UHGV virus genome: UHGV-0167633
Origin: a virus
Length of the DNA: 64,000 nucleotides
Reading direction: 5' to 3' (one strand)
Shown piece after piece: positions 5,927 through 55,644 of this stretch (positions are counted from its first letter, which is position 1; the number at the start of each line of letters is the position of its first letter). Position numbers and translations under genes: made by a program. A model generated the notes under the pieces. That model was not told where the DNA came from. It saw only the letters and a list, made by a program, of their open reading frames with translations, and ran no database searches.

Positions 5927-8900
5927 TCAACTCTCGCGTAGTCATTCATCAACGGATCATCAATTGACAGTGGTACCGTGCGCATAACGCCCGGCTGAGG
6001 CGTGCTGACCTTTACGACAGTTCCCTGGCCTTTCGCCGAGTCTTTGGTGTGCTCTTCAATCCTGGCGAGCAATGAGGTCATCTGCGCAAACAGCCGCTTC
6101 GTTTCACCATCAAGTGAAACGGTATTATCAGCCAACTGCATTGTCGGCTTAGCACCGGAACCGCCAAGGTCACTAATAACCTGCCCGTCTATCTGCATAC
6201 GACCGGTTGGTTGCTGCAAATCGTTGGCGACAGTCGTCATCTGGGACGTGGAAGCTGGTTGAGGAGAATTATTTGAGCGCATTCCCCGGGCATTAATGAG
6301 TTTGTCATACAGTCCATCAATCCCCATTTGTGCGCCGAGCTGGTCAAAGTAACTTGAGTTGTTGGCCACCGGACGTGCCTCTTCAACTGGCATAGGTGTA
6401 TCAACATACACATTGCCAGCAGCCGTTGCGGTCCCCTTCCCTCGTGCACGTTCTTCGAGCGTTCCCTGAACGACTTCCCGACGCATACCCCGGCCATTCA
6501 TGAATTTGTTGACCAGATCGTTAACACCAACAGCATTGCCAATTTTGTCTACCAGACCGCCTTTCTCAAACGGGCTATCACCAGGGGTAAACGCCAGGCC
6601 AGTAGACTGATCGATAACAGCGTTATCAGGTATCTTTTCGTGAATTGCTGGTGCGCTATGATCTACCTTAGAGCCATAAACGGCACCATTATTGAGCATC
6701 TGCTGATACCCTCTGACACGAGTAACATATTCGCCGGTACCGGCGACTACTCTCCCCTTATCAACATGCCCCATACCAGCATGATAGGCAGCTATTGCAC
6801 GACCCTGATCACCGTTATAACGGTTCATCAGCATACTTAGGTATCTGGCGGCACCATCAGCTGCTTTTCGTGTATCCATGGCATCAGCATCGCTGAGTCC
6901 AAGATCCTCCCTTGTACCTTTAGTGATCTGAAAAGCCCCAAGGGCAGATGAAAGTTTGTTCCCGTTTTTGTCTACTGGATTTCCAGTTCTCTGGCCTGCA
7001 CTAGACTCTGCGGATGCAACTGCTGACAGAATCCCTTTTTCAAGCCCATACTTACGTTCCAGCTCATCAAAATAATCGGCATTGTCAGAAATCCATTGGT
7101 ATCCGGCAGCATTTAATTTTGGCAAAGAAACATCCTTGCCATTGTTAAATCGACGTTTATCTATCTCATATGCACTTAATGCTTCCTCCTTACCTGTAGC
7201 AGACTGGCCCAAGGCAGCATCAATTGTTTGTGCTGCTTTATTTCCTGTTTCTACGGCATTTGCATTGATAATCTGATTAGCAGTTTCTTTAACTGTTTTA
7301 TTGCTATCTTTCGCCATATCCAGGGCCGCATTTATCACGCGGGCAGCAATATTAGTCTGTTTGGCATCGGATTCAGCTTTAGAATCAGATGTCCCCTGCT
7401 GGCTATTAACCGGAGCTTTTAACTCTGGAGTGATTTCTTTCGCATTAGCCTCGCCGATCGGATTGGGTATTTTTGATACAATCATTGCCGCAGGGGTATT
7501 TTTAACGGCATCAACCGCTGCATCTAATGCTTTACCTGGTAAATTTTTAACCCCATCCCAAATATTACTAGCTGCCTCTTTAATGTGTTTCCCTGGGTTC
7601 TTAATGAAATCAATTGCACTATCAATTGCATCACTGAAAACCTGTTTCAGGTTATCGACAGTAAAGAAGTCTTTGATGGCATCCAGCTTTTCAAGCAGCT
7701 TATTAGATGTATCGCTAAACCATGCTGAAACAGCATCACCAATCTTTGCTGTGTAATCATCGAACTTGGTAGAAATGGTGTCGCCAAGGTTAGAAATATA
7801 TGTTTCTAAGTTGGTAATCCCACTATCAATGGCCTGGGCAATACTTTCCGTCGAAAATGATTGCAACATATTGCCGATATCCTCAAATCCAAGTGATTTG
7901 AGAACATCACCAATAGCACTGCTAATACCAGATACCAGTCCCCCCAAATCAAGAACATTGGCTAACGTATAAGCGGCTTTTTGCTGGAATGATGGATCTT
8001 GTCCTGATTTAAGCCCAAACGCTCGACGTTGCGCTTCTGTATCATTCCAACCGGTTACCGCATCATAAATACCTCCAGCCACTGTGCCGACTAGGGGAAT
8101 TGCGCGTAACGCCCCTTTACCAACTGCCTTTAATCCAAGTTTACCTGCTGCCCGGGCAGCCAAATCTCCGTCTTCATGGGCGAGAGTCTTCTTGCCACCA
8201 CCGCGTAGCATTCCTACAAGTTTCTTTGCCCCCAGAGCGCCAAAAGCGAGTGCTCCAGCTTTTTTCAGCATGCCACGCCCCATTAACAACGACGCGACGC
8301 CACCGGCCCCCTTCCCTAACAGGCTAAATAATTTGGACAGCAAGCCGCCCTTCTTTTTCCCGGTGTTTTTGGCTATCTGATCAAGGGCGCTGAGAATCTT
8401 GTCATTGCCCTCTTTAATTTCGCTGGTCTGATCCTGAAGTTCCTGAACCGTCCGTTTTTGGGTGTTAACCTGAACGACATCGGCACTATTTTGCGATTTA
8501 CGCCTAAAAAAACCTTTTCTACGGCTGTTATCGTCATTGCCACGAATCACATCGGCAATAGACTTTCTGGCACCATTAAGCGATCCACCAACTTCTTTTG
8601 ATATCCCGCCAAGCTCCTTCCCTGCGGCCCACAATGGACCAGCAACGGCATAACCTAACGCATCGACGGCGCGAGTCTCTGAAGGGTTACCTATGCCTTC
8701 AGCTACTTTTGACAGTTTTTTTAATAAACCTGATTCAGCATTTAGACGCTCATCATCCTCTTTGCGCCTGGCCTTTTCAGCACGTTCAGCACGGGCATCT
8801 TCCGCTGCGGCCTTACTCCCTGGCTTTCCAATAAAACGACCACGCGCATCGCGTTGGTTTTGGCTTTTTTGCGCACCGCCTTTTTGACCGAACATTTCGC

Positions 8901-11504: not shown

Positions 11505-11617
11505 TTGTCATTTGTTACCGGTCAGTCTACACATTTCAGATACTACGTTAAAACAACTCAAGTGCTTCAAGTAGCACATCGTCATCAACACCCAACCCGA
11601 AGATGCGGAGATAAAAT

Positions 11618-12691
11618 TCAAGCCTTAAGAGGCTTTGTGTATGTTCGTGTAATCCAACCAGTAATAAACTCATCCCCTGATTTAACCTGCACGTAAAGCC
11701 ATTGACGATCTTTCTTATCTAAAATAGCAACAATTGTGTTTTTGCCAATGCATTCAATCACTTCACTATTTAAAGAAGGGCCGACATGCAACCTTACGTT
11801 ATCACCTGTTATAGCTCTAAAATTATTAAGATCCTCCCACTGAATATCTTTATTTTCTTGTGTTAGCTTTTGCTTAGATATTGGCTTATCCTCATTTAGA
11901 GATAGAAGATATGATTCCATCTTGTAAATTTGCGATAATGTCTTTTCTTTTGCATAATCAGTTATAGCGCCAAGCACCACTTGATAAAAAATCCACAGAA
12001 GGAAGATCTGAATAGGAGAAGGAAGCGCCTTAAATGAATCAAAAAACGTCGAACTAGATTTATTAAATCCTTTGTTTTGATGCTCACTTTCGGTATGCGC
12101 TGATTTTATAGAATCATTAGCATAAGCCTGCGCGATAGTAACAAGCCCAAGCTCTACTACTTGCTCTAATAATACACTTCTTGTTTTATTATACTGCTTT
12201 ATTACTTCTTTAATATCTTTGCTTATCTTAATTTTGTAATTTATATTAGAGTGTAATTCTTTAAATACCTCCTCCATATTATTTAAGCCAGCTATCTTAT
12301 TAATGGCTTCTGAGTGTTTTCGTAACGGCATAGCCATTTCAGCTTGATTTTTAATTATTTGAATATGCTCATTTGCATCACTGGGAAAAGCCGCCTGATA
12401 CTGTTTCTGTAAAAATACCATTTGTTCACGAAACTGGTGTGCAATTCTCGTAACTTTTGGTAAAGACTCAAGTTCTTTTCGAAAACAATCATTAATTAAT
12501 TCTTGTTTTTTAACTGTTCCAAACTGTTTAACTAAACTCTTGTAAATATATTCTGAATTTAATAAACCACTTATCTTTTTATGCCTCACTCCTTTAATTT
12601 CATTTAAATAATCATAAAAGGCAGTGCCTTCAGCTTTATTATTAGAGTTAAGCGAAATGTGTTTAATATCCTTCACTTTATTCACCGTCAT
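11618..12691 (-). CDS. membrane protein with C-terminal SH3b-like domain (AT-rich accessory gene)
   Basis: 357-aa ORF; one predicted TM segment (IQIFLLWIFYQVVLGAI); C-terminal beta-rich segment resembling bacterial SH3; strongly AT-rich relative to flanks. Confidence 0.5.
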   Translation of the reverse strand: MTVNKVKDIKHISLNSNNKAEGTAFYDYLNEIKGVRHKKISGLLNSEYIYKSLVKQFGTVKKQELINDCFRKELESLPKVTRIAHQFREQMVFLQKQYQAAFPSDANEHIQIIKNQAEMAMPLRKHSEAINKIAGLNNMEEVFKELHSNINYKIKISKDIKEVIKQYNKTRSVLLEQVVELGLVTIAQAYANDSIKSAHTESEHQNKGFNKSSSTFFDSFKALPSPIQIFLLWIFYQVVLGAITDYAKEKTLSQIYKMESYLLSLNEDKPISKQKLTQENKDIQWEDLNNFRAITGDNVRLHVGPSLNSEVIECIGKNTIVAILDKKDRQWLYVQVKSGDEFITGWITRTYTKPLKA

Positions 12692-13184
12692 CTTGTTTTA
12701 AACACCCGTCATTTTTAGCTTCTGTATAAATACTGGAAATACCATCCAGAGTGAATGATGTGATTCGACTCGAACCGATATATACATCTATGTTTTTTTC
12801 ATTTGTAGATGACACTGCCTTCCAAAATGAATACCATTCCCTACGATTAGGAGCAGTGTTTTGCGTGCCAATATTAAAACTATCCGGGCCAACAATTAAA
12901 GTAATTACATCTGCTTTACGTGATATTGTGTCGCGTGTAGAAAAATCGGCATTCTCTTTTCCTCCGCTTACATACAAATTTCTTCCAGCGATATGATCTT
13001 CTGAACCTTCCCTTGCTCCAGCATCACAAGAAAAGTTAATTGTGTAACCATCGTCATTGGTTGCAGAGATTTCTCTCCACCCTTGCTCACCTCCTACCGT
13101 CCAAACGGTAGAACCTGCCATTGCTGATAATGGCAGAAAAGAGGACATTAATAAAAAGCTATACAATGACTTATACAATTTCAT
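12678..13184 (-). CDS. secreted protein with signal peptide (AT-rich accessory gene)
   Basis: 168-aa ORF; N-terminal signal peptide (MKLYKSLYSFLLMSSFLPLSAMA); overlaps downstream gene start by 14 nt. Confidence 0.5.
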   Translation of the reverse strand: MKLYKSLYSFLLMSSFLPLSAMAGSTVWTVGGEQGWREISATNDDGYTINFSCDAGAREGSEDHIAGRNLYVSGGKENADFSTRDTISRKADVITLIVGPDSFNIGTQNTAPNRREWYSFWKAVSSTNEKNIDVYIGSSRITSFTLDGISSIYTEAKNDGCLKQDDGE

Positions 13185-13272
13185 ATTTTTATCCTTTTGT
13201 TTTTAGATATTATAGGCATAGTCCATATTGTTAGATCCACTATGCCCAGAGAATTTAATATTATTTATTAAA

Positions 13273-13791
13273 TTATGGGGCTACACCCGGCCCCCTAGCT
13301 CGTTCTTCAAGCGTACCCTGTACGTTTTGATGGCGCATTCCTGGGGCATTTCTTATTGAGTCAATGCCATTTCTTCCAACATCTTCTTTATTAACGGCAT
13401 TGCTCGCCACCAGCACACCCCAGCTAGGGATAGCAAAATCAGGAGCGGTTTCGCATGCCTTTACCATATAATCGAAAGTGCTTCGATTGATCTCGTTTGC
13501 GTCGGGATTTAATAGGCGAGAATATTGATATTTAGCATTTTCGTTGGTTGCGACTTTATATAGTTCTTGCTGCACCATCGCTTCAGAAAGTTTAAGACGT
13601 TTCATATCTGACAGTAACTTCTTGCGCATGGATTCGTCTTGACTGACAGCAAAGCCGTAAACGTGCCCAAGGTATTTCGTATAATCGGTACAAATCTCCT
13701 TCACGCTTGATGCTGCATTAACAGTCCCAGCCATAAATAATAACGGTAGTAATAGTTTTCTCATTATAACCTCACCTGCCTTATAACTCAT
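13273..13791 (-). CDS. periplasmic protein carrying a Sit-like C-terminal motif (possible superinfection-exclusion protein)
   Basis: 172-aa ORF with signal peptide; last ~27 aa (NAPGMRHQNVQGTLEERARGPGVAP) closely match an internal Sit segment (NGRGMRREVVQGTLEERARGKGTA); occupies the position of the P1 sim locus. Confidence 0.5.
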   Translation of the reverse strand: MSYKAGEVIMRKLLLPLLFMAGTVNAASSVKEICTDYTKYLGHVYGFAVSQDESMRKKLLSDMKRLKLSEAMVQQELYKVATNENAKYQYSRLLNPDANEINRSTFDYMVKACETAPDFAIPSWGVLVASNAVNKEDVGRNGIDSIRNAPGMRHQNVQGTLEERARGPGVAP

Positions 13792-14413: not shown

Positions 14414-15801
14414 AAACACCTCTCGTCACCCGTAATGAAATAGCCGAAGCGATCGCCTTGCATACAATCTGTATGCCGACACGGGAGATCCCCGGCGCAA
14501 TTGCTAACTATTTCATGATAACCAGGCGTTTTTATACCCGAACAGATAAGGCTGTGATCAACAGGCTACTGATAGCCGAGATCAGGGATTATTTGATTGA
14601 ACAAGGACGTCTACGTTACGCAACAGTGGCAGCAGAAATGAGAAAGGAGGCACATAGAATGACCAGTAATAATTTGAATGTTAAAAAACCAGAATCTGTT
14701 GCTTCAGCTACGCCATCACCAGCTGTGAATGTTATCTCCAACACTGGAGACACAATCGACAGCCAGACGCTGTTAAAGATGGTTAATGAGGCGCGCAAGC
14801 TATGTGGGGAAAATGAGATCCGTAATAACGATTTTCTCAATAGAATTAAGGATGAACTTGATGGGGAATTTTACGAAACTTTCGTAAAATCCCATGGCAC
14901 AAGGGCCGGGCGCTCTTTTGAGGTCATAACCATGACCTACAAACAAGCCCTGCGCGTTGCTGCTCGCGAATCGAAAGCGGTCCGCCGTTCGCTACATACC
15001 ATGATTCAGTCATTGGAACCTATAAATGTAGAAAATCAGCCTGATGAAATTCCCGTTCTGGAATGGCAGGGAGTACGCGTCGTGACAACCGAGACTCTTG
15101 CTAGAGGGTATGGCACTACACCTATTCGTATTCAGCAGAACTACAATCGCAATGAAGAACGATTTGTAGAGGGTAAACACTTCTTTAAAATCAAAGGAGA
15201 TGAGATAAAAAGTTTGCGACTATCTTTTAGCGAGTTGCAAATTTCCCCCAAGACCAGATCCTTAATACTCTGGACCGAACGCGGAGCGGCACGCATGTCT
15301 AAGATCGTAGACACAGAGCAAGCGTGGGCATTCTTTGAAAAACTGGAAGACAGCTACTTCCGGCAAAAAGAACAGCAACCGGTCACAATCCCCCAAACAT
15401 TACCAGAAGCTCTACGCCTGGCTGCCGAGTTGGCAGAGCAGAAAATGCAGTTGGAACAACAGCTGGTGGCCGCAGCCCCTAAAGTAGATTTTGCCGACCG
15501 GGTATCAGTGGCTAATGGAATCCTGATCGGGAACTTTGCAAAGGTCGTTGGACTTAAGCAAAACGCCCTTTTCTCATGGTTGCGCCAGAACGGCATTCTC
15601 ATGGCTTTTGGTGCGCGCAAAAACGTACCGCGCCAGCAGTACATTAACGCCGGGTATTTCACGGTGAAAGAAGTGGTGCTGGATGATGAAAATGGCTACC
15701 AGATACGGCTGACGCCCCAATTAACGGGTAAAGGCCAGCAGTGGTTAACTCGCAAGCTACTTGATGCTGGCTTGTTAAAACCGGTGGCGTCCTTGTCTTA
15801 A
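14410..15801 (+). CDS. ant: antirepressor Ant (Bro-N/KilA-C type)
   Basis: 463-aa ORF; C-terminal KilA-C-like block (DFADRVSVANGILIGNFAKVVGLKQNALFSWLRQNGIL) shared with downstream kilA paralog. Confidence 0.75.
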   Translation: MKTPLVTRNEIAEAIALHTICMPTREIPGAIANYFMITRRFYTRTDKAVINRLLIAEIRDYLIEQGRLRYATVAAEMRKEAHRMTSNNLNVKKPESVASATPSPAVNVISNTGDTIDSQTLLKMVNEARKLCGENEIRNNDFLNRIKDELDGEFYETFVKSHGTRAGRSFEVITMTYKQALRVAARESKAVRRSLHTMIQSLEPINVENQPDEIPVLEWQGVRVVTTETLARGYGTTPIRIQQNYNRNEERFVEGKHFFKIKGDEIKSLRLSFSELQISPKTRSLILWTERGAARMSKIVDTEQAWAFFEKLEDSYFRQKEQQPVTIPQTLPEALRLAAELAEQKMQLEQQLVAAAPKVDFADRVSVANGILIGNFAKVVGLKQNALFSWLRQNGILMAFGARKNVPRQQYINAGYFTVKEVVLDDENGYQIRLTPQLTGKGQQWLTRKLLDAGLLKPVASLS

Positions 15802-16039
15802 CGTATTCAGACCAGGATTTGCCATAAATTACAGGCATGTGTACGATATGCCCAACCCTGTTTTTCAGGGGAGGCGCAACGTTATGCGGGGGTTATGAAC
15901 TCCTGGATGCGTAGCCTCCAGACAGAAAAAACCCTCGCTACAACGTTGCATGGAGGCAACCAGCGAGGGCATTCCTTATGTCTGAACAACAAGAGGATAG
16001 CCGCAAGCAGTTGCTGTTGCAAGTATGCGGAGCTTCGTA

Positions 16040-16156
16040 ATGACTCTTCAAAAAGCTTGCAAGTGGATTGTGACCAACATCATTGTTCCTGTCATCATCG
16101 GAGCTTCAAGTTCTGTGTTGGCATCAGTGATTGCCTCACTTCTCCACATTGCATAA
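16040..16156 (+). CDS. candidate small hydrophobic peptide (38 aa)
   Basis: ATG with GGAG 9 nt upstream; MTLQKACKWIVTNIIVPVIIGASSSVLASVIASLLHIA; followed by intrinsic terminator. Not in ORF track (below length cutoff). Confidence 0.3.
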   Translation: MTLQKACKWIVTNIIVPVIIGASSSVLASVIASLLHIA

Positions 16157-16210
16157 CAACATTGAAGGGCGTTAGTTCGCAGTGTAACAGCAGCGCGTTG
16201 CGCCCGAACA

Positions 16211-16246
16211 GGCCACAGGGTAAAACCTGTGGCCTTTTTCGTTTTA
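16211..16246 (+). terminator. rho-independent terminator
   Basis: GGCCACAGG-GTAAAA-CCTGTGGCC followed by TTTTTCGTTTT. Confidence 0.55.
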
Positions 16247-16271
16247 TCCAGCCACAAATCCACATTGAAAA

Positions 16272-16299
16272 ACGCCTTATACAAAAAAACCTGCCAGCA
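16272..16299 (-). terminator. rho-independent terminator (minus-strand reading)
   Basis: CCTGCCAG-CAAA-CTGGCAGG; on minus strand followed by TTTTTTTGT. Confidence 0.45.
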
Positions 16300-17846: not shown

Positions 17847-18113
17847 TTGACTTCATGGATCGCTGGTGCAAAAGCAAAGGCCGACAATCTGCGGTTATCC
17901 AAAAAACGCGCTCAAAAACATGAGTTCCAGCAGAAAGTTGAGGCAGCGGCCCGGAAATATGCTTACCTGAAGAGCAAGCGTTCTCCTGATATTGGCGGGA
18001 TATCAAACTTCGATAATCTGCCGCATTGCATGACGGTAAACGAAGCTCTGGATATGGTCCTATCTACAAGAAAAGAAAAGGAATTTTATATTCCAACTGG
18101 TTTTCGCGGATGA
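17847..18113 (+). CDS. hypothetical protein
   Basis: 88-aa ORF; no motif recognised. Confidence 0.3.
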   Translation: MTSWIAGAKAKADNLRLSKKRAQKHEFQQKVEAAARKYAYLKSKRSPDIGGISNFDNLPHCMTVNEALDMVLSTRKEKEFYIPTGFRG

Positions 18114-18208
18114 TCGCGAATGATAGAATCTTTACGTGTATTTAACGCTCAATACACACTATTTTGTCACCAGTATTATTTTTAACGTTTTTATAGGTAA
18201 CTTTTTCC

Positions 18209-18724
18209 ATGAAAAAAGTAGTTTTAACGGCCCTTCTGGCATGTGCCTTGGGGGTTGCTGGGACTGCCTCCGCATATCAGCACACACTCTCCTTAGACTT
18301 TGCCCAAGGAAGCGCAACGGTTAAAGGCGGAGATATAAAAGATCCAAAAGGCGTGAATATTAAATATCGCTACGAAATGGATTCTACGTGGGGTGGATTA
18401 GCTTCGGTCACTTACGAAAAGTCAAACACAAACCTATGGAATGCCGCCAAAGCCAAGGTTGAGTATGCCTCATTTACTTTTGGTCCGTCATACAGATTCA
18501 ATGAATTAATGAGTGCATACGGCTTGGTGGGTTTAAGCCATGCGGATGCAACAGCAAAACTGAATGGACAGTCATATGCTGGCTTTGGAACCGATTTTGC
18601 TTATGGACTTGGGCTTCAATTTAACCCATCTCCGCAGTTTGCAGTTGATCTCTCGTATGAACGTTCTAAACCAGGTGATCTAAGCAATAGCATTTGGATG
18701 CTTGGTGTCGGTTACCGATTTTAA
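18209..18724 (+). CDS. Ail/Lom/PagC-family outer membrane beta-barrel protein
   Basis: 171-aa ORF with signal peptide (MKKVVLTALLACALGVAGTASA), alternating-hydrophobic beta strands, C-terminal GYRF; followed by hairpin CCCTCTGC/GCAGAGGG. Confidence 0.8.
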   Translation: MKKVVLTALLACALGVAGTASAYQHTLSLDFAQGSATVKGGDIKDPKGVNIKYRYEMDSTWGGLASVTYEKSNTNLWNAAKAKVEYASFTFGPSYRFNELMSAYGLVGLSHADATAKLNGQSYAGFGTDFAYGLGLQFNPSPQFAVDLSYERSKPGDLSNSIWMLGVGYRF

Positions 18725-18771
18725 CTATTTAGTCCCTCTGCCCTACGCAGAGGGATTTATACTTTGCTCTG

Positions 18772-19035
18772 GTGATATTCGTTATGTTCATTGAGACTAA
18801 CGCTATGACTATCCTGGTATCTATTCCCATCTATATACTAATTGGTGGACTGATATACGCATTAAGTCGATATATTTTGCGAGCTAATGCAGAAATGGCC
18901 TGGTGGGATCGTTTTTGGATAATGATTTTTTTTGGCATATTCTGGCCATTAGGGCTCATGTTTGTTGCAACATTTCTTCTGATGTGGATATTCACCCTTC
19001 CAGGTGATTTCTATAGAAAAAAAACCAGACATTGA
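18772..19035 (+). CDS. small inner-membrane protein
   Basis: 87-aa ORF with two or three predicted TM helices; AT-rich. Confidence 0.4.
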   Translation: MIFVMFIETNAMTILVSIPIYILIGGLIYALSRYILRANAEMAWWDRFWIMIFFGIFWPLGLMFVATFLLMWIFTLPGDFYRKKTRH

Positions 19036-19217
19036 TACACCCGCTGCGGTGTGCTTGGGGCTATCAGCTTCAGGTATTACCCGAAAAGCAGATAGAAGAA
19101 AGCCCCAGTAAACATTATGCGTCCCGCACAACGCTTAACATTAACCGGGGCCATACCTATGCTTAGCGTACTTAGATTAATCCTCTCCTCTGTCAAGGAG
19201 CAAGGAATTTTTTACTG

Positions 19218-19850
19218 CTATGCCGCCTTTCCAGTTATGGATTCTGCGACAAGAACAACCCCATGCTTACTTCGATCCGGATGTTCACTCCATATCTCGG
19301 ATTCAGGAATACTTTCCCCGTCATAGCAAACACGTTCGCCGTCAAACGGGTAATACTGAGCGGCATCGGTGTCGAGGATAAACACTTTTAGCTCGGATGA
19401 GCGACGGGCGATGTGTTGCCAAAGAGCTTTTCCACCTTCGTATTGCTCATTATCACTGAGCAAAACAACACCAGCTTTTGAGGCTACGGTTTCGTAAACA
19501 AAAGTGGCTAAACCGACATCCCGGACGATTCCATCAACCACGATACCTTCAATCTGGGCAACATCGCTATCCTCCCAGAACTTCCTTACCAGTACGCCTT
19601 CAAGCTGCGGGCGACGTTGAAGTTCAAGAGTAGCGACAACCTTATGCCGCATATCACCATCGATAACAGAAGGCGCAGCCTCTATTACAGCTGCAAATGG
19701 GGTTTTGGAATCCCATATAACCTGGTAAAGCACACCCTGGATGGTAACGCCGTCCAGGATCGAAAATCGACGAGCGACAGTACCCGGGGAGTACGACATT
19801 GGAATCACAGCCATTTTAGAGTCCCCCTTTAACAGTACAGGCACAAACAT
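19218..19850 (-). CDS. hypothetical protein (own promoter region and upstream terminator)
   Basis: 210-aa ORF (likely start at MAVIPMSY); preceded by AT-rich region and bidirectional hairpin. Confidence 0.4.
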   Translation of the reverse strand: MFVPVLLKGDSKMAVIPMSYSPGTVARRFSILDGVTIQGVLYQVIWDSKTPFAAVIEAAPSVIDGDMRHKVVATLELQRRPQLEGVLVRKFWEDSDVAQIEGIVVDGIVRDVGLATFVYETVASKAGVVLLSDNEQYEGGKALWQHIARRSSELKVFILDTDAAQYYPFDGERVCYDGESIPESEIWSEHPDRSKHGVVLVAESITGKAA

Positions 19851-19941
19851 CTACCTCAATAATTGTAGTTTATTAGAACATTAATAATCTAACATAAAAC
19901 TCCAGACAATGTTATCGATGCATTTTTATATAAAAAGGTTA

Positions 19942-19967
19942 TAAAAAAAGCTCCCGAAGGAGCTTTA
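19942..19967 (-). terminator. rho-independent terminator (bidirectional hairpin)
   Basis: AGCTCC-CGAA-GGAGCT flanked by A7 upstream and T3 downstream on plus strand. Confidence 0.5.
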
Positions 19968-25435: not shown

Positions 25436-25528
25436 AATTCAAGGTGAAATCGTGGCGATTTCACCTTGAAATTTTTGAGGGATCTACTTTAAAAACAGTA
25501 GGTTAATAGTGAAATTTGAATGGCGAAA
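25436..25528. promoter_or_regulatory. parS centromere (ParB box A/B repeats flanking an AT-rich IHF-type spacer)
   Basis: Palindrome GGTGAAATCGTGGCGATTTCACC (heptamer ATTTCAC plus hexamer TCGCCA motifs) and GTGAAATTTGAATGGCGA separated by AT-rich spacer, immediately downstream of parB. Confidence 0.75.
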
Positions 25529-25530
25529 GT

Positions 25531-26532
25531 TTAAGGCTTCGGCTTTTTATCGAGGCTCTTTCTAAGGATATGCCCAATCATCCTGTCGAGTTCTTCCTGT
25601 AACTCTTTTGAAAGTCGATTAAACTCATAAGAAAATGCACGGCCTTTCACGCGCTTCCTTGCAAAGCGATCCTTGTCCTCAAATTTCCATAATTCAGTAA
25701 CTACGGACTTATCTTTAGAACCTTTATCCGTGAGTAGTGAGGCTTCCTTTGTTATCAAGCGCAGGATTTTATTTTTAACTTCATCTTCGGCCATTTCTTC
25801 AATGGATAAGATGTCGTTTATTTCCGGGGATATGTTTTGAATAAGCTGATCAAACTCTAAATTCTTGTTCCCCATTTCGTCGCCAACAGCACAAAGCGTT
25901 TTGTAGTCCGAAAAGGTTAATTCCGACTGCACAGGGAAAAGGGCGACTAATTCTTCCGGAGCACTCGCTGCCTGGAGAGCACGCGTGACCTTCGCCTGAG
26001 ATAGCCCTTCTTTGGCTGCAATATCCTTCTGACTCATCCCATCATTTTTCATTCGCATCAAACGCAGACCTATTTCTCGAATGCTGTGCTGCAATGCTGT
26101 CTGAACGTCTTTCGCTAAATTTTGCGCTTCCTGGACGCTGATCTCCTGGTCCGTGACTAAAACCCGCAACCCTACGTTCTCTAAGATGGCAGAAGCTCGA
26201 CGCCGGGAACCATCCAAAATTTCAATTTTCCCTGTAGCACGTCTAACACCTATTGCAGGGTAAAATTGCTGATGCTTAATAGTGCTTCGGATACTTTTTA
26301 ATGATTTTGGCGTAAGAGATGCCTGGTCACGCCCGTTGTTATGCTGATCAACAAAGGTATCGCTTTCTACCTGGTTCGGAGGTATTACCTCTTCAATAAA
26401 TGTGGCCTGGCGACCAGTTGATAACTTGAATACCTGCTCGACTCGATCGCCAGAGGCTGAAGAACTATCAAATCCGCTTAATATTGAAGGATTAAGGGTT
26501 CGCCCAATTGTTGGTCTGTTTTTCTTTGACAT
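25531..26532 (-). CDS. parB: partition protein ParB
   Basis: 333-aa ORF downstream of parA and adjacent to parS; ParB-like HTH region; same length as P1 ParB. Confidence 0.9.
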   Translation of the reverse strand: MSKKNRPTIGRTLNPSILSGFDSSSASGDRVEQVFKLSTGRQATFIEEVIPPNQVESDTFVDQHNNGRDQASLTPKSLKSIRSTIKHQQFYPAIGVRRATGKIEILDGSRRRASAILENVGLRVLVTDQEISVQEAQNLAKDVQTALQHSIREIGLRLMRMKNDGMSQKDIAAKEGLSQAKVTRALQAASAPEELVALFPVQSELTFSDYKTLCAVGDEMGNKNLEFDQLIQNISPEINDILSIEEMAEDEVKNKILRLITKEASLLTDKGSKDKSVVTELWKFEDKDRFARKRVKGRAFSYEFNRLSKELQEELDRMIGHILRKSLDKKPKP

Positions 26533-26548
26533 GGGGGTTTCTTACTCC

Positions 26549-27745
26549 TCAGTTAGATCTGATAAATTCAATACGGTCAAAAACTGCTTTAGCAAAATCT
26601 TCCGCGGCAATTCGCGCGTTCTTCAATGCATCAGCACTACCAACATACGTTGCCGGGTTAGCTGAAATAACAGTGTCAAAAGACTCGCCGCAACGTTCAA
26701 AACCGTCAAGGCGAGGGAGGACGACATCGAGCATATCCCCACCGAACACTTCTTTAGCCAGGCTATGGCAATACTTATGATCTGCCTTGTTACTCAACTT
26801 GGACATAAAACCAATGTTAGTCGCAAGCTGGCACTCGCAGCCTTCATCCGAAATGAGTTTCACCAACTCAGGAAGGCGGGCAACGTATTTAAGCGATGAG
26901 TGGAAATCGACAGTTGCTGGCGGCAGAGGTGTAAACAGTATATTGGCCGAGGCCAAAGCATTTTTCAGGAAGGCGTCAAGGTGAGGACCACTATCAACGA
27001 GGATAAAGTCATAATCGCTCTTCAGCTTATCAATCACATTTTCTTTCAGGACAGCATGGATGTTCTGACCCGGTAGATGCTCATTGCACAGCTCTCTCCA
27101 ATCGGATGCAATAAAGGCATCGTCAATCGACGCAGGCATAACGTCAACCCCAGGTACAACAGAAGGAACAATAAACTCCTCTAACAGCTCTTCACGGCTT
27201 ACATTCTGCAACATAGCCTGTGCAGATGTTGCGTTTACGATACCAATAGAGTGTTTATGGCTTAAAAACATCGTTGCTGAAGATTGCGGATCAAGGTCAA
27301 TAACCAGAATCCTTAAATCCTCCATAAGAAGATGAGGGTGAGCACGCATTGCATGCGCCAGAGAAACCGTCGATACAGTTTTTGACACACCGCCTTTAAG
27401 ATTGGAGATGAAAATCACATAAGCTTCGCTGTAGCGATCCCGGTATTTTGGCACTCCGCGATGTTCATATATGTCAATGATGTTCTGAATTGACATCGCA
27501 TATTTCATTGAAGAGCCAGCAGGGCGTTTATCGAAAACATAACCCTTTTCTTCCATTTCACTTACGGCATAGTCAACGTTCGCTCGAGTCAGTAGAGGCA
27601 ATTTTGCCAGTGCCGCTTTCGCATAGACCTGGTAAAACTCGTTCGCGTGTAGCTCATCCTTTTGCAACTGTACTTGTTCAGTCAGAACATTGAGCATTCT
27701 GTTTGCTCTTTGAGCAACCTTGTGAAGCTGGCTGGAATCACTCAT
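26549..27745 (-). CDS. parA: partition ATPase ParA (type Ia)
   Basis: 398-aa ORF; deviant Walker A KGGVSKT; N-terminal DNA-binding extension typical of P1-type ParA. Confidence 0.9.
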   Translation of the reverse strand: MSDSSQLHKVAQRANRMLNVLTEQVQLQKDELHANEFYQVYAKAALAKLPLLTRANVDYAVSEMEEKGYVFDKRPAGSSMKYAMSIQNIIDIYEHRGVPKYRDRYSEAYVIFISNLKGGVSKTVSTVSLAHAMRAHPHLLMEDLRILVIDLDPQSSATMFLSHKHSIGIVNATSAQAMLQNVSREELLEEFIVPSVVPGVDVMPASIDDAFIASDWRELCNEHLPGQNIHAVLKENVIDKLKSDYDFILVDSGPHLDAFLKNALASANILFTPLPPATVDFHSSLKYVARLPELVKLISDEGCECQLATNIGFMSKLSNKADHKYCHSLAKEVFGGDMLDVVLPRLDGFERCGESFDTVISANPATYVGSADALKNARIAAEDFAKAVFDRIEFIRSN

Positions 27746-27880
27746 CGAAAGTCATCCTTTATGCTGTATTTTTGAATTTAATTAAAAATGCTGCATAAAA
27801 TAATAATGTATGCGTAGATGCTTGTACATAGCATTCTCTGCATGTTTGGTTCATTTTGCACGATAGAGAGTTGCAAGGAG

Positions 27881-27906
27881 GGCACAAAAAAGCCCCGTTC
27901 AGGGGC
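27881..27906 (-). terminator. rho-independent terminator after the inserted T5orf172-like gene
   Basis: On minus strand GCCCC-TGAAC-GGGGC followed by TTTTTTGTGCC, 8 nt after the stop at 27914. Confidence 0.6.
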
Positions 27907-27913
27907 ATCAGCG

Positions 27914-28723
27914 TTATTTGTTAAGAGCTGCGAATAATCGTTCGAAATCGATAGTATCTATAGCACGCGTTAGCGCCGGAAGTTCAGCCTCAAAGCACCC
28001 GTTTCGATCGTAAAAGAAGGGACCGAAGAGCGAGGCATGTTGGATTCTACTTCGCCCCAGTCCGGACACACAGTTAAGCCCATTACCAGCTAAAAGGCTA
28101 AAAAACTTCTCTGGATTATCGTGGTAAAGCTGGGAATCAATGATGGCGGTTAACTCTTCCATAGGGAAGCACACCCGCCCTGTCTCCCAGGGATATTTAG
28201 TCCGAAGCGTAAACATCGCTTTCAGCAATTCACATTGAGCGCGGATCGCGTCAGGTTCATAGCCAGATATGGAGACATAAGCCACATCCCTCATTCCTGC
28301 GTCATCTTTGAAAGTCACGATAGAAGTAACATCCAGTTCTTTTTCGAAAGAGCGAGCAGCATCTACTGGACGCTGAAGTAAATCATTCGACTTAATTCGC
28401 TCGAGAATCCCTCCCCACATATCATTTAGATATTCGATATGAGCCAAAACCTTATCAAGACACTCTCGTGTAAACCATTCAGTATGCCCGCCACCGGCGC
28501 TTTTCTCCCACGGCGCATTCCAGGGGAAAAAGGTTGCGTGTAAAGCCCGCTCAAGATTAACCATTGCCAAACGCGTACCACGATAGACCCGTGAAAGCGC
28601 AAAATCGGGACTCACTTGTAGCCCTTTAAACCGTGCCAATGGACCACATGAAATGCCGATTTTAAAAGTATCTCCGTTCTCCGGCACCAGAACGTAGAGG
28701 TAGTGTTGTTTCTCTTCTTGCAT
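27914..28723 (-). CDS. T5orf172 / GIY-YIG-like domain protein with unassigned C-terminal domain
   Basis: 269-aa ORF; N-terminus HYLYVLVPENGDTFKIGIS...R...L...GHTEWF fits the T5orf172 pattern; wedged between RepA iterons and parA with own terminator. Confidence 0.5.
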   Translation of the reverse strand: MQEEKQHYLYVLVPENGDTFKIGISCGPLARFKGLQVSPDFALSRVYRGTRLAMVNLERALHATFFPWNAPWEKSAGGGHTEWFTRECLDKVLAHIEYLNDMWGGILERIKSNDLLQRPVDAARSFEKELDVTSIVTFKDDAGMRDVAYVSISGYEPDAIRAQCELLKAMFTLRTKYPWETGRVCFPMEELTAIIDSQLYHDNPEKFFSLLAGNGLNCVSGLGRSRIQHASLFGPFFYDRNGCFEAELPALTRAIDTIDFERLFAALNK

Positions 28724-28755
28724 ATCAATACCACTGCTTGATGAGAACCGCGCAA

Positions 28756-29012
28756 ATGTTGACTATGCGCGAAAGTTAATGTGAATAGTTGACTATGCGC
28801 GATGTGACTACAGTCAAAAGTTGACTGTAGTCGATTTAACTCCACCAAAAATCGACTATGTAAGATATTGTCGGGAGAAACGTTGACTATACGCGATGAA
28901 ATGACCCTAAAAGCCATCTCAATAGCGACTTGCAGAATATTGACGCCAGCAAAAATCCACCAGCGTCAACGAATGTCGCCTATAGTCAACTTCTCGCTAT
29001 CGCATATAGTCA
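28756..29012. repeat. iteron array downstream of repA (incA-like copy-control repeats)
   Basis: About nine copies in both orientations of core TTGACTATRCGCGA / TCGCRYATAGTCAA (e.g. 28756-28770, 28786-28800, 28880-28894, 28972-28989, 28998-29012). Confidence 0.7.
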
Positions 29013-29015
29013 ATA

Positions 29016-29957
29016 TTATGGATTGCGCTTATGGATCTGGAAGCCGATTTTCCTGCCGTTTTTTATCTCTGAAAATTTAAGATATTCAATAGCTTCCAAA
29101 TCTTTCATAGCTTTTCTGATAACGCTATTTTGCACGCTAACGGATGATTTGAGATTAAGCCTTGCTCTAAGGCGCTCAATGCTGACAGGTGCCGGGTTGG
29201 CGGGTAGAGCCTCAAAGAATGTATACAGCACCTTGGCCGTCTCTTTGCGCCCGAGCTTATCCAGCATCTTCAGCTTCAGGATTCGCTTATAGTCAACATA
29301 GTAAAGTTCAGATAGCTGTTTCTGCGGCTGGATCTCGATAACATCAAGCTCGGTATTCAGGCTGCTATATGCCAACAAGTTGACGTTAATGTTATTGAGA
29401 TGACCTTTTGCCGCCGGGAAGCGGAATTTGACAACTGTCTGCTGAATGCGTGTCAGAGAGTCATCAATACTTTTACGGAACGCCTTTGAAAGGCGCTTAC
29501 GTGGATAGCCGCATCGATCGGCAAACTCGGAGAATGGCAGGGTGATTATGCCGTCATCATCAGGTGCGTAGTCAAACAACGCGGAGGTTATGCCCACCCA
29601 CACCTTAAAATCAGTATCCATATCCAGGCGTGGACCATGTATTTCAATTCCCTCATAGCCTTCCTGCTCAACAATTTTGAGGCTTGATAGTTCTTCGGTT
29701 GCGTTCGTTGTGTTTGTAGTAACTGACGATCCGCGACGTAGTGCCACATTGGTAGATTTTAAGGTTGGCACAAACACACCTAAGCGCAACAAAGCGATGG
29801 GTTGTATAGTGCTATTGTTATTGGGTTTCAGGCTGTGGATTTCTCCTGTATTTCCTGCAACTTCTTCAACGCTAAGGAAGCCTTTATTTTCTTCCGGCAT
29901 CGTGGTTTCTCCATATGTGGCGCGGCCTGGCGTCATCTGGATTGCAGTTATCAACAA
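29016..29957 (-). CDS. repA: plasmid replication initiator RepA (iteron-binding)
   Basis: 313-aa ORF flanked by iteron arrays on both sides; winged-helix Rep-type architecture. Confidence 0.85.
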   Translation of the reverse strand: MLITAIQMTPGRATYGETTMPEENKGFLSVEEVAGNTGEIHSLKPNNNSTIQPIALLRLGVFVPTLKSTNVALRRGSSVTTNTTNATEELSSLKIVEQEGYEGIEIHGPRLDMDTDFKVWVGITSALFDYAPDDDGIITLPFSEFADRCGYPRKRLSKAFRKSIDDSLTRIQQTVVKFRFPAAKGHLNNINVNLLAYSSLNTELDVIEIQPQKQLSELYYVDYKRILKLKMLDKLGRKETAKVLYTFFEALPANPAPVSIERLRARLNLKSSVSVQNSVIRKAMKDLEAIEYLKFSEIKNGRKIGFQIHKRNP

Positions 29958-29977
29958 CTGTGAATAGTCAGGCTCTA

Positions 29978-30081
29978 AAATCGCGTACAGTCAATGTTTC
30001 TGTCGCGTATAGTCAACAATAAATCGCGTGCAGTCAACAATAAATCGTGCACAGTCAACATAAAATCGCGTATAGTCAATG
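29978..30081. repeat. iteron array upstream of repA (incC-like origin repeats)
   Basis: Five direct repeats AAATCGCGTRYAGTCAAY at ~21-bp spacing (29978, 30001, 30021, 30042, 30063). Confidence 0.75.
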
Positions 30082-30083
30082 TT

Positions 30084-30191
30084 GATCCCATTTCAGGCCA
30101 GAAATGGCGCGGCTTACAGCGATCCGGGATCTTCTTTGGATCTTCCTAGGTTCTCTTTAGGATCTGTTTATTGGATCTATGCTGTGGATAA
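30084..30191. promoter_or_regulatory. plasmid origin segment: GATC cluster plus DnaA box
   Basis: Six GATC sites within ~95 bp (30084, 30121, 30128, 30139, 30161, 30174) and TGTGGATAA (DnaA box, 30183-30191) directly adjacent to the iterons. Confidence 0.55.
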
Positions 30192-30234
30192 GTTGAATAA
30201 ACCGGCCAATAAAGCCGGTTGGAAGGAAGCCGTA

Positions 30235-30627
30235 TTATTCTACGCTCTCGATAAGAAGACCATGTTCATAACATTTAAGCTCATCGCCTTCGTACAGGAA
30301 TTGGTATCCAACACCACCATCTTCATGGACATTAGGGAATAACTCATAACTCACTGAAGAGCAAATCACACCAATGCAACGATCAACGCCTTCTCGTTCT
30401 TCAGTGCTGAAAAAATCCTCTTCGGTAAGAACATGAGTACATTGCTCATCAGCATAGGTCGGAAATACATGCTCGATGCAATCCGGGTGTTTTAAACCAA
30501 GCTGATCGGCAAGCTCGAAAGCATGACGGTATTGTTCAGATCCTGGCTTGCCAACAGTGATGTGCTCAATTTTGTAGATTGAAGTCGCTTTGTTGATAGT
30601 TTGCTTTACTGTTACTTTATCAGACAT
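30235..30627 (-). CDS. hypothetical protein
   Basis: 130-aa ORF; no motif recognised. Confidence 0.4.
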   Translation of the reverse strand: MSDKVTVKQTINKATSIYKIEHITVGKPGSEQYRHAFELADQLGLKHPDCIEHVFPTYADEQCTHVLTEEDFFSTEEREGVDRCIGVICSSVSYELFPNVHEDGGVGYQFLYEGDELKCYEHGLLIESVE

Positions 30628-30638
30628 AAAAATCCCTT

Positions 30639-30971
30639 TTAGTTACCGCTGATAGCGCGGTTGTAATCATTAACGTTGCGATTCTTCCTGTTAATCCCCA
30701 TCAGCATCGTTTCTGTATCGAGGATATACGCTGGCAGATCATCAAAATATTCACTGCTAAACTCTGGCATCCTGCACATAAATGCACTTTTTGGGGCAGG
30801 GTGGTTAACCTTTGTCGGCGTCGGCGTTAAATTCGCTGATCGACTCCCGGAGCAACCGCTGAGTGTCAGCAGGAATACGCTGACGAACATTACCCGCCGC
30901 AACAAGTTGTTTCTGAACTTCAGCTTTTCGTTCCATTTGCCTGTCAGCATACTTGGCTTGTTCTGATTCAT
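30639..30971 (-). CDS. lipoprotein
   Basis: 110-aa ORF with lipobox LTLSGC after a hydrophobic signal segment. Confidence 0.55.
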   Translation of the reverse strand: MNQNKPSMLTGKWNEKLKFRNNLLRRVMFVSVFLLTLSGCSGSRSANLTPTPTKVNHPAPKSAFMCRMPEFSSEYFDDLPAYILDTETMLMGINRKNRNVNDYNRAISGN

Positions 30972-37294: not shown

Positions 37295-37382
37295 CACAAC
37301 AGGTAAGAGTATTTGTAGAGTTCGACTCTCTACCGTGGGCTTTTTCCCGCGATGCGAGCCATAAATGCTCTTTCCGTTGTGG
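37295..37382 (+). repeat. long-hairpin element, copy 3 (contains T-arm-like GTAGAG-TTCGACT-CTCTAC)
   Basis: CACAACAGGTAAGAGTA ... TGCTCTTTCCGTTGTGG, followed by TGAATGC. Confidence 0.5.
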
Positions 37383-37534
37383 TGAATGCGCGTTGCTAGC
37401 GCGCAAGTCCGCCCTATGGCAACGAGGCGGCGTAGTAAATATCGATGCCTCAGTCATCAAGCGCACTGACCGGCCTTATGGGCTATGAAAAAAAGAGGCG
37501 CAGTCGGAGATCAGCACCGACCACCACAATCACT

Positions 37535-37621
37535 GGAGAGTAGGGAGCATGGTGCTCAAGCGGTCTTGAAAGCCGTCCCGTTGCGCAAGCGATGATGGTT
37601 CGATTCCATTACTCTCCGCCA
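37535..37621 (+). tRNA. tRNA-Ser(TGA)-like sequence (possibly a pseudo-tRNA)
   Basis: Perfect 7-bp acceptor GGAGAGT/ACTCTCC + G + CCA; T-arm GATGG-TTCGATT-CCATT; anticodon arm GCGGT-CTTGAAA-GCCGT (anticodon TGA); long variable region; D-arm non-canonical. Confidence 0.35.
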
Positions 37622-37622
37622 T

Positions 37623-37735
37623 CGCAACGTTAAGAGTATTTGGCTAATTAAGCGAATGCCGGAAGCAGAACCGGATCACCAAATGCGTACAGGCGTCATC
37701 GCCGCTCAGTCAGCCAAATGCTCTTACCATTGCGG
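37623..37735 (+). repeat. long-hairpin element, copy 4
   Basis: CGCAACGTTAAGAGTAT ... ATGCTCTTACCATTGCGG, immediately after the tRNA-Ser-like CCA end, followed by TGAATGC. Confidence 0.45.
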
Positions 37736-52138: not shown

Positions 52139-52864
52139 ATGAAAGGCGAAGTGAAAGAGCGCGGCATGATTTTCAACGATGAGATGGTCCGGGCCATCCT
52201 CGAAGGAAGGAAAACGCAGACGCGGCGGATAATGAAAAATCAGCCTGCGGAAGTTGGTCCAGAAGCACCGGTGATGGTTAGAAAAATTGGTGCAGGTTTT
52301 CAGTGGTACGGGGCTGATGGTGTAAGCAGTGTTTTCAATTGCCCCTTTGGTATCGTCGGCGATCGAATTTGGGTTCGTGAAACATGGGCGATATTAGGCA
52401 ATGAAGATGGTTGCAGTGTGGACTGGAACGACAACCTTTGTCGTGGTGATGAGAAGAACGCAGCAAGGATTTATCGGGCCAGTTGTGAGCAAAAGCCTGG
52501 TGATTACGGTTTATGGTCGATACCCGATGATGCCGACTGGAAACCTCACACTGTGAATGAAAAGTTTGATGGTGGGTGGCGTCCATCAATTCACATGCCG
52601 CGATGGGCATCACGCATCCTGGTGGAAATTACCAACGTGCGCGTTGAGCGGTTGAACGATATCAGCGAATGCGATGCAAGGGATGAGGGCGTTCCGCCTG
52701 CTGGAAGTTTGCTTCCTGATCACCCGGGAACATTCCTTACTCCCAAGGGGGATTTCGCAATGGCCAAGGTTGCGTTCCAGCGCCTGTGGGAATCCATCTA
52801 CGGCGAAGAAAGCTGGAGTGCTAATCCCTGGGTTTGGGTAATCGAGTTTGAGCGTATTCAGTAG
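52139..52864 (+). CDS. conserved phage protein (ASCH-like?)
   Basis: Start chosen at ATG 52139 (RBS AGGGGGA); RKTQTRR...WVRETW...NPWVWVIEFERI pattern. Confidence 0.4.
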   Translation: MKGEVKERGMIFNDEMVRAILEGRKTQTRRIMKNQPAEVGPEAPVMVRKIGAGFQWYGADGVSSVFNCPFGIVGDRIWVRETWAILGNEDGCSVDWNDNLCRGDEKNAARIYRASCEQKPGDYGLWSIPDDADWKPHTVNEKFDGGWRPSIHMPRWASRILVEITNVRVERLNDISECDARDEGVPPAGSLLPDHPGTFLTPKGDFAMAKVAFQRLWESIYGEESWSANPWVWVIEFERIQ

Positions 52865-52873
52865 GGCGAGCGT

Positions 52874-53095
52874 ATGCAATCAGTTATTTGTGAGGAAGTC
52901 GGCCTGAATAAAGCATCCCCAGCAGAGTTAAGAGCAAGTCTCGAAATGGCGCATAGCCTTGCTCAAATTGGTGTCAGGTTTGTACCAATTCCAGTTGAAA
53001 CAGATGAAGAATTTCACAGGTTAGCGGCATCGGCAGCACAAAAGCTGGAAATCATGGCAGCGAAAGTAGAGAAAGCTGAAGGAGCGACAAAATGA
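52874..53095 (+). CDS. hypothetical protein
   Basis: 73-aa ORF. Confidence 0.3.
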   Translation: MQSVICEEVGLNKASPAELRASLEMAHSLAQIGVRFVPIPVETDEEFHRLAASAAQKLEIMAAKVEKAEGATK

Positions 53096-53307
53096 GCAAG
53101 CCAACCGACGAAGAAATAGTTCGGGTGTTGGAAGAACACGGGCGCTGTATGACTTACGTCGTGACCAACTGGCTTAGGGATAAATATCGCACACTCAAAA
53201 CGGCATACGTTTTGCGTCGTCTAAAGAAACTGGAGTTCGACGGGAAAGTAAAGCGCGTTAACAGTTCTTATATAAGACAAATTTGCTGGGAGGCATCCAG
53301 TGAATAA
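53092..53307 (+). CDS. hypothetical small protein
   Basis: 71-aa ORF; 4-nt overlaps both sides. Confidence 0.3.
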   Translation: MSKPTDEEIVRVLEEHGRCMTYVVTNWLRDKYRTLKTAYVLRRLKKLEFDGKVKRVNSSYIRQICWEASSE

Positions 53308-53944
53308 CCGCTTTTACATGATGTGCTTGCGTGAAACTGTGGGTAATAACGCCTCATTCCATTGCCATAACGGCAATGGTTACAGTTCTGATATCGATCG
53401 CGCTCATGTTTACACGCTGGAAGCAGCCCAAAAAGCCTGGAATTGTGGACGAGATATCGATCAGCCTGTTTGCGCTGATAGCGTGGATGCAATGGCTGTG
53501 TGGCACGTTGATTGCCAGTACATCCCTACAGAAAGCCTGATTGAGTCAGATTGCACTGCGTATGTGGCCTACAAAAAAGGTAGCTGGAACGGCAACGATG
53601 TTTACTGGCTTCAACACGGTGGATTGCCAACAGATGACTTCAGTAAAGCGACCATCTTTAGCGTCGCCAACAAAAACGAACCAGGAATAGTTTGGTTGCC
53701 ATTTTCCATTGCTAATGCAGCAAAGCGCCGGACGTTCAATATCAATAACTTTAACCGCAGAACAATGGTTCAGGGCGCAGGTTTGGTCATGCCTGACTGG
53801 TTGAAAAAGCAAAACAGAAGAAAGAAGTCGCGAAGCGGGAAGGTGCGTTGGAATTGTCCGCATTGCGGAAAAATAACCTGGCAGTACAGCCCATATGATT
53901 TTGAAGGCTGTAGTGATTACAACTGTGAAGGATGGCGAGAATGA
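53300..53944 (+). CDS. Cys-rich hypothetical protein
   Basis: 214-aa ORF; C-terminal CPHCG...C..YNCEGW. Confidence 0.4.
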   Translation: MNNRFYMMCLRETVGNNASFHCHNGNGYSSDIDRAHVYTLEAAQKAWNCGRDIDQPVCADSVDAMAVWHVDCQYIPTESLIESDCTAYVAYKKGSWNGNDVYWLQHGGLPTDDFSKATIFSVANKNEPGIVWLPFSIANAAKRRTFNINNFNRRTMVQGAGLVMPDWLKKQNRRKKSRSGKVRWNCPHCGKITWQYSPYDFEGCSDYNCEGWRE

Positions 53945-54594: not shown

Positions 54595-55109
54595 GCGAAA
54601 TTAATTACCAGGCACTGCGTGAGGCGGCGGAACGTGCAATTCCAGCAATGGAACGCCTGTTAATGTTGCCAGCTGATGATGATTTGTTAAGTGAACAGGA
54701 ACTTAAAGATTACGGTGTGGATATTGATGCGCTCAACGCCTTCAAATTTCTGGCCGGACCAGAAACCGTGCTGGCACTACTGGATGAACGGGAAAGGAAC
54801 CAGCAATACATCAAACGCCGCGACCAGGAGAACGAGGATATTGCGCTAACGGTAGGGAAGCTGCGCGTTGAGCTTGAAGCAGCAAAATCAAAACTCAACG
54901 AGCAGCGTGAATATTACGAGGGAGTAATCGCGGATGGAAGTAAGCGCATAGCAGAACTGGAGGAGCGGGAAATACTGCTCCCGGAACGTAGCAGCATGCT
55001 TCATCGAACAGATTTTCACGATGATTACCAAACGGTAATGGCATACAAAGTTTCTGAAGTCATCGCTGCAATCCGCACCGCAGGCATTCGCATCAAAGGA
55101 GGTGAGTAA
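54591..55109 (+). CDS. Ead/Ea22-like coiled-coil protein
   Basis: 172-aa ORF; N-terminus EINYQALREAAERA. Confidence 0.45.
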   Translation: MSEINYQALREAAERAIPAMERLLMLPADDDLLSEQELKDYGVDIDALNAFKFLAGPETVLALLDERERNQQYIKRRDQENEDIALTVGKLRVELEAAKSKLNEQREYYEGVIADGSKRIAELEEREILLPERSSMLHRTDFHDDYQTVMAYKVSEVIAAIRTAGIRIKGGE

Positions 55110-55643: not shown

Positions 55644-55644
55644 T

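Follow-up and report, generated by a model that had tools for sequence, protein, structure and literature searches.

P1-like phage-plasmids bear one of two replicon types, IncY or p0111 (PMC9603915), with 132 p0111 and 94 IncY elements counted among those of Salmonella (PMC11165635). In phage JL22, the repA of the IncY type is replaced by a repA' of the p0111 type together with gp57 (PMC9603915), and the RepA of phage SJ46 shares 42% identity with the RepA of P1 (PMC5241659). The record AP010962 is given as the p0111 reference (PMC11165635); it was compared here through its RefSeq copy NC_013370, the plasmid pO111_2 of E. coli O111:H- strain 11128, and typing tools call p0111 at about 95% nucleotide identity to the rep gene of this plasmid. 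The locus considered here, positions 28756-30191 in a stretch of 64,000 nucleotides of the virus genome UHGV-0167633 (the window, i.e. the whole stretch of DNA that was analysed), is with a probability of about 0.9 a p0111-type plasmid-maintenance replicon of a P1-like phage-plasmid (Punavirus), a low-copy plasmid prophage, and probably works in the P1 manner.

The assignment to p0111 is carried by near-identity with the reference, as the module matches pO111_2 with 98.6% nucleotide identity over 2601 bp and the two RepA proteins agree at 293 of 294 positions, and by the P1-like backbone, which holds the replicon in the slot between parA and upfA. Membership in IncY would imply a RepA or repA nearly identical to that of P1 (K02380 / NC_005856) and the 19-bp iteron GATGTGTGCTGGAGGGAAA. 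The RepA of the window is instead 41% identical to P1 RepA at the amino acid level, and its iterons resemble none of the 14 that are annotated in the P1 record along with five Dam sites and DnaA boxes. The layout of incC with five iterons, repA and incA, next to an origin of GATC sites and a DnaA box, is present, but layout alone does not confer membership. A homologous RepA, iterons on both sides of rep and a DnaA box with a block of GATC heptamers place the locus in the RepFIB/P1 RepA family, and the p0111 replicon is, judged from its sequence, a diverged homologue of the P1 oriR-repA-incA replicon and not an unrelated one. The initial annotation had suggested from the iteron core, which did not look like that of P1, that the replicon had been swapped. 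Typing and alignment to the P1 reference bear this out: the replicon is p0111 and not IncY, and identity to P1 is lost at about 27845 and regained at about 30240. The swap is real but ordinary, as replacement of IncY by p0111 is already in the literature (PMC9603915, PMC11165635, PMC5241659). The MOB-suite label that PLSDB gives for the p0111 phage-plasmids NZ_CP122822 and NZ_CP028125 is 'IncHI1B', which is at odds with the PlasmidFinder call 'p0111'.

The module and its replication elements are the following:

27846 to about 30235, no strand: p0111 replicon module replacing P1 incA-repA-oriR (blastn and MAFFT alignment against P1 NC_005856)
28755-29017, no single strand: incA-like downstream iteron array of mixed orientation (weight matrix and repeat finding)
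29016-29900, minus strand: repA, predicted p0111-type iteron-binding initiator of 294 residues (41% identity to P1 RepA; PHROG 775)
29280-29300, plus strand: iteron-like site in the repA coding sequence, TCGCTTATAGTCAAC
29959-29967, minus strand: DnaA-box-like 9-mer CTATTCACA (8 of 9 positions) between the iterons and repA; P1 has CTATCCACA on the equivalent side
29978-30083, minus strand: five origin iterons, the incC equivalent, with units starting at 29978, 30000, 30021, 30042 and 30063 (repeat finding and weight matrix)
30084-30177, no strand: cluster of six GATC (Dam) sites at 30084, 30121, 30128, 30139, 30161 and 30174
30183-30191, minus strand: perfect DnaA box TTATCCACA at the outer end of the origin

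The origin iterons are 21-bp units upstream of repA, all in the same orientation and spaced by 22, 21, 21 and 21 bp. Their consensus in the sense of repA is ATTGTTGACTATACGCGATTT, and the hexamer TTGACT occurs in every one of the five. The core reported initially, CGCGTATAGTCAA, is present as stated and is unlike all 14 annotated P1 iterons. The six GATC sites that follow compare with about 0.4 expected from the GATC density of the window (Poisson P ~4e-6), and five of them lie in heptamers of the AGATCC type which are homologous to the origin heptamers of P1 and RepFIB. The five direct iterons, the six GATC sites and the DnaA box claimed upstream of repA were therefore all recovered. The extra GATC at 30084 abuts the last origin iteron, and the outer DnaA box is single, compared with two in tandem in P1 (7892-7909 of the P1 stretch compared). 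RCS47 differs from the window in the region corresponding to 29915-30105, with about 20 substitutions that are private to it and a single 1-bp insertion, mostly in the repA leader and the origin iterons; a change of TG to CA at 30048-49, for example, lies within an iteron. These differences point to a sub-variant origin within p0111.

For the iterons downstream of repA, a weight matrix trained on the five origin iterons only was run over the whole 64-kb window, and its noise level was taken from the best score in each of 20 shuffles of the 64 kb (mean 11.8 bits, maximum 15.3). Six clear downstream iterons score 15.2-24.1 bits, the weakest of them (28973, 15.2 bits) being at the level of the shuffle maximum. 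Those at 28755-75, 28785-805, 28817-37 and 28879-99 are inverted relative to the origin with a spacing of about 30-32 bp, while those at 28973-93 and 28997-29017 have the origin orientation, and the latter overlaps the repA stop codon. Additional copies are degenerate, namely a weak full-length iteron at 28848-68 (6.7 bits) and half-sites at 28803-28818 and 28938-28970. The mixed orientation described for this array is correct, but the figure of about nine iterons is generous, since six are clear and nine are reached only with the degenerate copies. The site within repA matches the core at 14 of 15 positions, in origin orientation, and its 16.6 bits are barely above the shuffle maximum of 15.3. 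A Providencia relative has an intragenic iteron-like site as well, at another codon position (pPROV083-1 locus 1901-1921). With 13.9 bits, the site at 1358-1378 lies within the shuffle noise and was dropped as an iteron candidate.

These scores bear on the question whether the repeats are functional iterons at all. They could be a decayed or chance array, with maintenance of the plasmid depending on oriL/repL, a cointegrated replicon or the like, and it would fit this that no binding or replication data for the p0111 replicon were found in the literature searched and that no clear repA promoter was detected. However, twelve matrix matches fall within 1.35 kb, and no iteron match above noise was found beyond the replicon in the 64 kb, where the best reaches 13.9 bits. 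The repeat geometry is that of the functional P1 iterons, and repA is intact and at least 99% conserved in 394 plasmid records. Furthermore, hundreds of complete plasmids of about 90-125 kb carry p0111, and the two records inspected for typing list no other replicon type. A decayed array is thus very improbable, and the repeats are best taken as the iterons of a working p0111 replicon.

The initiator itself agrees with this assignment. The mechanically called open reading frame of repA spans 29016-29957, with a Shine-Dalgarno start at 29900 (GGAGAAACCACGATG; GGAGA before the ATG), in agreement with the RefSeq start on identical plasmids. The alignment with P1 RepA covers the whole of RepA (E 2e-71), and the Pfam domain Rep3_C (WH2) is found with 27.0-27.3 bits at a cutoff of 21.1. 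All five aligned members of the RepA family match both Rep3_N and Rep3_C, with a best Rep3_N E-value of 5.9e-11. A single-sequence AlphaFold2 model of RepA has a mean predicted local distance difference test score of 35 and is unusable for a comparison with the two-winged-helix proteins RepE, pi and pPS10 RepA. Searches of the PDB with the RepA sequence and with the profile of the five family members returned chance-level matches only, RepE and pi not being among them, and none of RepA, the neighbouring T5orf172 protein and UpfA was assigned to a family by an NCBIfam scan. In the Rfam scan, 27500-30800 showed a sub-threshold chance match only, leaving control by an antisense RNA without evidence.

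A 1.55-kb segment of the replicon is 97.4-99.2% identical to SJ46, JL22, Ro157c2YLVW, phi456, RCS47 and some records labelled P1, and matches with more than 95% identity extend to 12 phage and 399 plasmid records (100% in three of the latter). Among complete E. coli genomes, 415 of 5426 carry p0111. Across 72,556 plasmids the identity of RepA is bimodal, with at least 99% in 394 records, 80-99% in four, and the next relatives at 53%. These nearest relatives are encoded by a Providencia plasmid (53%), Klebsiella IncFIB (49%) and pO157 RepFIB (47%). In the Providencia locus (pPROV083-1 locus 2267-3108), a 43-bp unit is repeated in tandem about 14 times, starting in the 3' end of the gene for the RepA homologue and continuing downstream, before the inverted iterons.

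Such relatives raise the possibility that the module is a RepFIB-type replicon which a P1 backbone captured from a large enterobacterial plasmid, F-like or otherwise, the layout being common to the whole RepFIB/P1 family. RepA is nearer to these plasmid RepB/RepFIB proteins than to P1 RepA, and the iteron core GTTGACTATACGCGA resembles those of Klebsiella (GTCTACTGTACGCGA) and Providencia (GTTGATGCTAGACGA). In the part of the origin with the GATC sites and the DnaA box, similarity to the Klebsiella IncFIB origin (82% over 82 bp) also exceeds that to P1 (74-76%), and MOB-suite files p0111 plasmids under the RepFIB-like label 'IncHI1B'. On the other hand, a donor was not found among the 72,556 plasmids, where RepA identity drops almost straight from at least 99% to 53%, and the plasmids that match p0111 are mostly non-mobilizable and of roughly 90-125 kb. 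These data would fit a transfer in either direction. Capture is a tentative explanation, somewhat less probable than its absence; it bears on the origin of the module and not on its mechanism, and is compatible with a p0111 replicon that works like that of P1.

The limits of the module are set by comparison with P1, with which the window is colinear over about 36.3-91.0 kb of NC_005856, the identity being about 97% (range roughly 92-99%) outside a dozen or so non-P1 segments. By blastn, a nucleotide match to P1 is absent across 27848-30096 except for one stretch of 59 bp. At the left junction, identity to P1 falls sharply from 100% to nothing at about 27845, some 20 bp upstream of the -35 element of Ppar. 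On the right, the alignment restarts at 30097, but this position was rejected as the junction because in all p0111 elements examined the stretch that begins there shares only 74-76% identity with P1 and resembles IncFIB origins just as much, so that it reflects deep conservation within the family. The right junction is placed near 30235-30240 instead, as P1 identity is at least 90% again from about 30240; in a mosaic zone that reaches into upfA as far as about 30390, SJ46 is closer to P1 than the window is. The module thereby contains a T5orf172/GIY-YIG-like gene, the downstream iteron array, repA and the entire origin. Its additional gene and its neighbours on either side are:

27914-28723, minus strand: T5orf172/GIY-YIG-like gene of 269 residues (Pfam T5orf172, E 4.7e-6; PHROG 2876 and PHROG 681, 'endonuclease')
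30235-30627, minus strand: upfA, the P1 backbone gene directly outside the origin
25444-27745, minus strand: P1-type partition module with parS (25444-25526), parB (25531-26532) and parA (26549-27745)

The T5orf172 gene, which separates the downstream iterons from Ppar, has no counterpart in P1 and is a module-specific passenger, named 'gp57' in JL22. Only 5 plasmid records contain a match of at least 99% to the allele of the window, compared with 394 for RepA. The gene is faster-evolving than that for RepA and is split or truncated in pO111_2, SJ46 and CP122822, a pattern of divergence and truncation which may fit the life cycle of a homing endonuclease. The T5orf172 protein might accordingly be pictured as a homing-type endonuclease that cuts the 'empty' IncY allele near Ppar, repair of which would carry the replicon along into further P1 backbones. 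Homing of this kind might explain the sharp left junction about 70 bp from the T5orf172 stop codon, the variable right junction in upfA and the approximately 17 switches between IncY and p0111 that were inferred on the tree of Salmonella phage-plasmids (PMC11165635). If true, the nuclease would promote replicon exchange among P1 backbones. What is observed, however, is only the shapes of the junctions and an apparent co-occurrence of gene and replicon, the gene being present in 401 plasmid records (tblastn, all with at least 90% identity) and p0111 in 399 of the same host genera, the two sets having been counted separately. The nuclease activity and its targeting are pure conjecture, and homing as the driver of the swap is quite unlikely.

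Given the anatomy, the homology and the identity with the reference, the p0111 replicon most likely works in the same way as the replicon of P1. By this analogy, RepA monomers would bind the five 21-bp origin iterons. Host DnaA, with a box on either end of the origin, and the Dam-methylated, AT-rich region of GATC heptamers would act with RepA in opening the origin and in loading the host replisome. RepA on the origin iterons, each of which has a TTGACT hexamer resembling a -35 element, would also repress repA, and the downstream array would titrate RepA and handcuff the origin, thereby keeping the copy number at about one per chromosome. Several observations weigh against this model. In RepA, the Pfam domain Rep3_N (WH1) scores 21.7-22.0 bits and is slightly below its cutoff of 22.4. 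Neither a simple sigma-70 scan nor a relaxed hexamer scan finds a convincing repA promoter, the best candidate agreeing at 8 of 12 positions, for which reason autorepression through an overlap of iterons and promoter is inferred and not seen. An iteron footprint, a mini-replicon or an incompatibility test for the p0111 replicon was not found in the literature searched. Finally, p0111 and IncY occur together in 2 of the complete E. coli genomes where about 28 would be expected if they were independent, and never on one record.

This last point concerns the claim, made at the outset, of a different incompatibility group. The claim is correct in the sense of typing, where the replicon is p0111 and not IncY, but part of the incompatibility is unchanged: ParB is identical to that of P1 at 333 of 333 positions and ParA at 397 of 398 (99.7%), and the ParB boxes of parS are identical. 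As RepA and its iterons have co-diverged from those of P1, the incompatibility with IncY P1 that is exerted through replication control (incA/incC) should be lost. As ParA, ParB and parS are of the P1 type, the incB determinant is the same, and the incompatibility due to partition should persist. Among the 5426 complete E. coli genomes, p0111 is found in 415 and IncY in 361 (each about 7%), and either of them in 774. The rarity of co-residence means that the natural data give no positive demonstration of compatibility, and the count is only suggestive since the genomes sampled are not phylogenetically independent. Co-residence of p0111 and IncY may be possible but rare, consistent with their common partition and immunity functions. 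In an earlier study, ParA and ParB of RCS47 and SJ46 were called P7-type and only distantly related to P1 (PMC5241659). As regards P1, this is not borne out by the sequences compared here, as the ParB of RCS47 is 100% identical to those of the window and of P1 NC_005856 and ParA is 99.7-100% identical throughout.

Apart from the replicon, the element is by alignment mosaic at many loci. Further segments that have no match in P1 25-94.8 kb are 1-1505, 6631-7238, 11517-13624, 14994-15387, 15783-16282, 18050-19943, 37314-37716, 52835-58322, 58665-59234, 59969-60218 and 62070-63404. The non-P1 segments include the 5.5-kb block 52835-58322 (pmgT-lxr region), the sim region and the rlfA/rlfB region.

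The practical value of these results is a correct label, that of a p0111-type P1-like phage-plasmid, a class which is under surveillance for genes of extended-spectrum β-lactamases, mcr and toxin genes. A different replicon type must not be equated with free compatibility, as the P1-type partition system is kept and co-residence with IncY is rare. The word 'iteron' is absent from the three studies cited above (PMC9603915, PMC11165635, PMC5241659), and a literature search for p0111 and iteron led to an unrelated review only. The iteron map and the conservation of the host-factor half of the origin have therefore apparently not been spelled out in the p0111 literature searched.

Compared with the p0111 replicon of pO111_2, which is also that of the phages SJ46, JL22 and RCS47, the locus has the same iterons, the T5orf172 gene and the flanking genes parA and upfA. 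The differences from pO111_2 are allelic only, with the T5orf172 gene being intact here (269 residues) and split there. The wider RepFIB family of large enterobacterial plasmids, whose initiators go under the NCBI name 'RepB family plasmid replication initiator', is represented by Providencia, Klebsiella IncFIB and pO157 RepFIB. It likewise has iteron-like repeats on both sides of rep, and the 21-bp spacing recurs in the repeats upstream of rep in Providencia and Klebsiella. Their iteron cores, GTTGATGCTAGACGATTT in Providencia and GTCTACTGTACGCGAC in Klebsiella, are visibly related to that of p0111 through TGACT and CGCGA elements. Klebsiella IncFIB and pO157 RepFIB also have a block of GATC heptamers upstream of the iterons and a DnaA box before it, which is perfect in pO157 and imperfect in Klebsiella (TTTTCCACA), while the GATC sites of Providencia are sparse. 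In contrast to these members of the family, p0111 is a distinct lineage with an iteron sequence of its own. The half of the origin with the DnaA box and the GATC sites is conserved across p0111, P1, Klebsiella IncFIB and pO157 RepFIB, and the pair of RepA and iteron is specific to each lineage.

The agreement with P1 extends to details, as had been proposed for the layout of incC, repA and incA. The spacing of the origin iterons (22, 21, 21 and 21 bp) is the same, the distal downstream iterons are inverted at a spacing of about 31 bp and the proximal ones direct, and the last of them overlaps the repA stop codon. The order of genes and sites is shared as well, with the block of GATC heptamers, the outer DnaA box and a DnaA-like box on the side of repA, and so are the full-length homology of RepA and the genomic slot between parA and upfA. 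By contrast, there is no nucleotide similarity to P1 across repA and the iterons, and the iteron of the window, GTTGACTATACGCGATTT, is unrelated to the P1 iteron read in the sense of repA. Six to eight downstream iterons here compare with nine in P1, six GATC sites with five, one outer DnaA box with two, and a gap of 78 bp between the iterons and the ATG with one of 57 bp; the T5orf172 gene between the downstream array and Ppar is additional. The iteron geometry of the P1 replicon has thus been preserved down to single base pairs, whereas the sequence of RepA and of its iterons is new and, presumably, their specificity as well.

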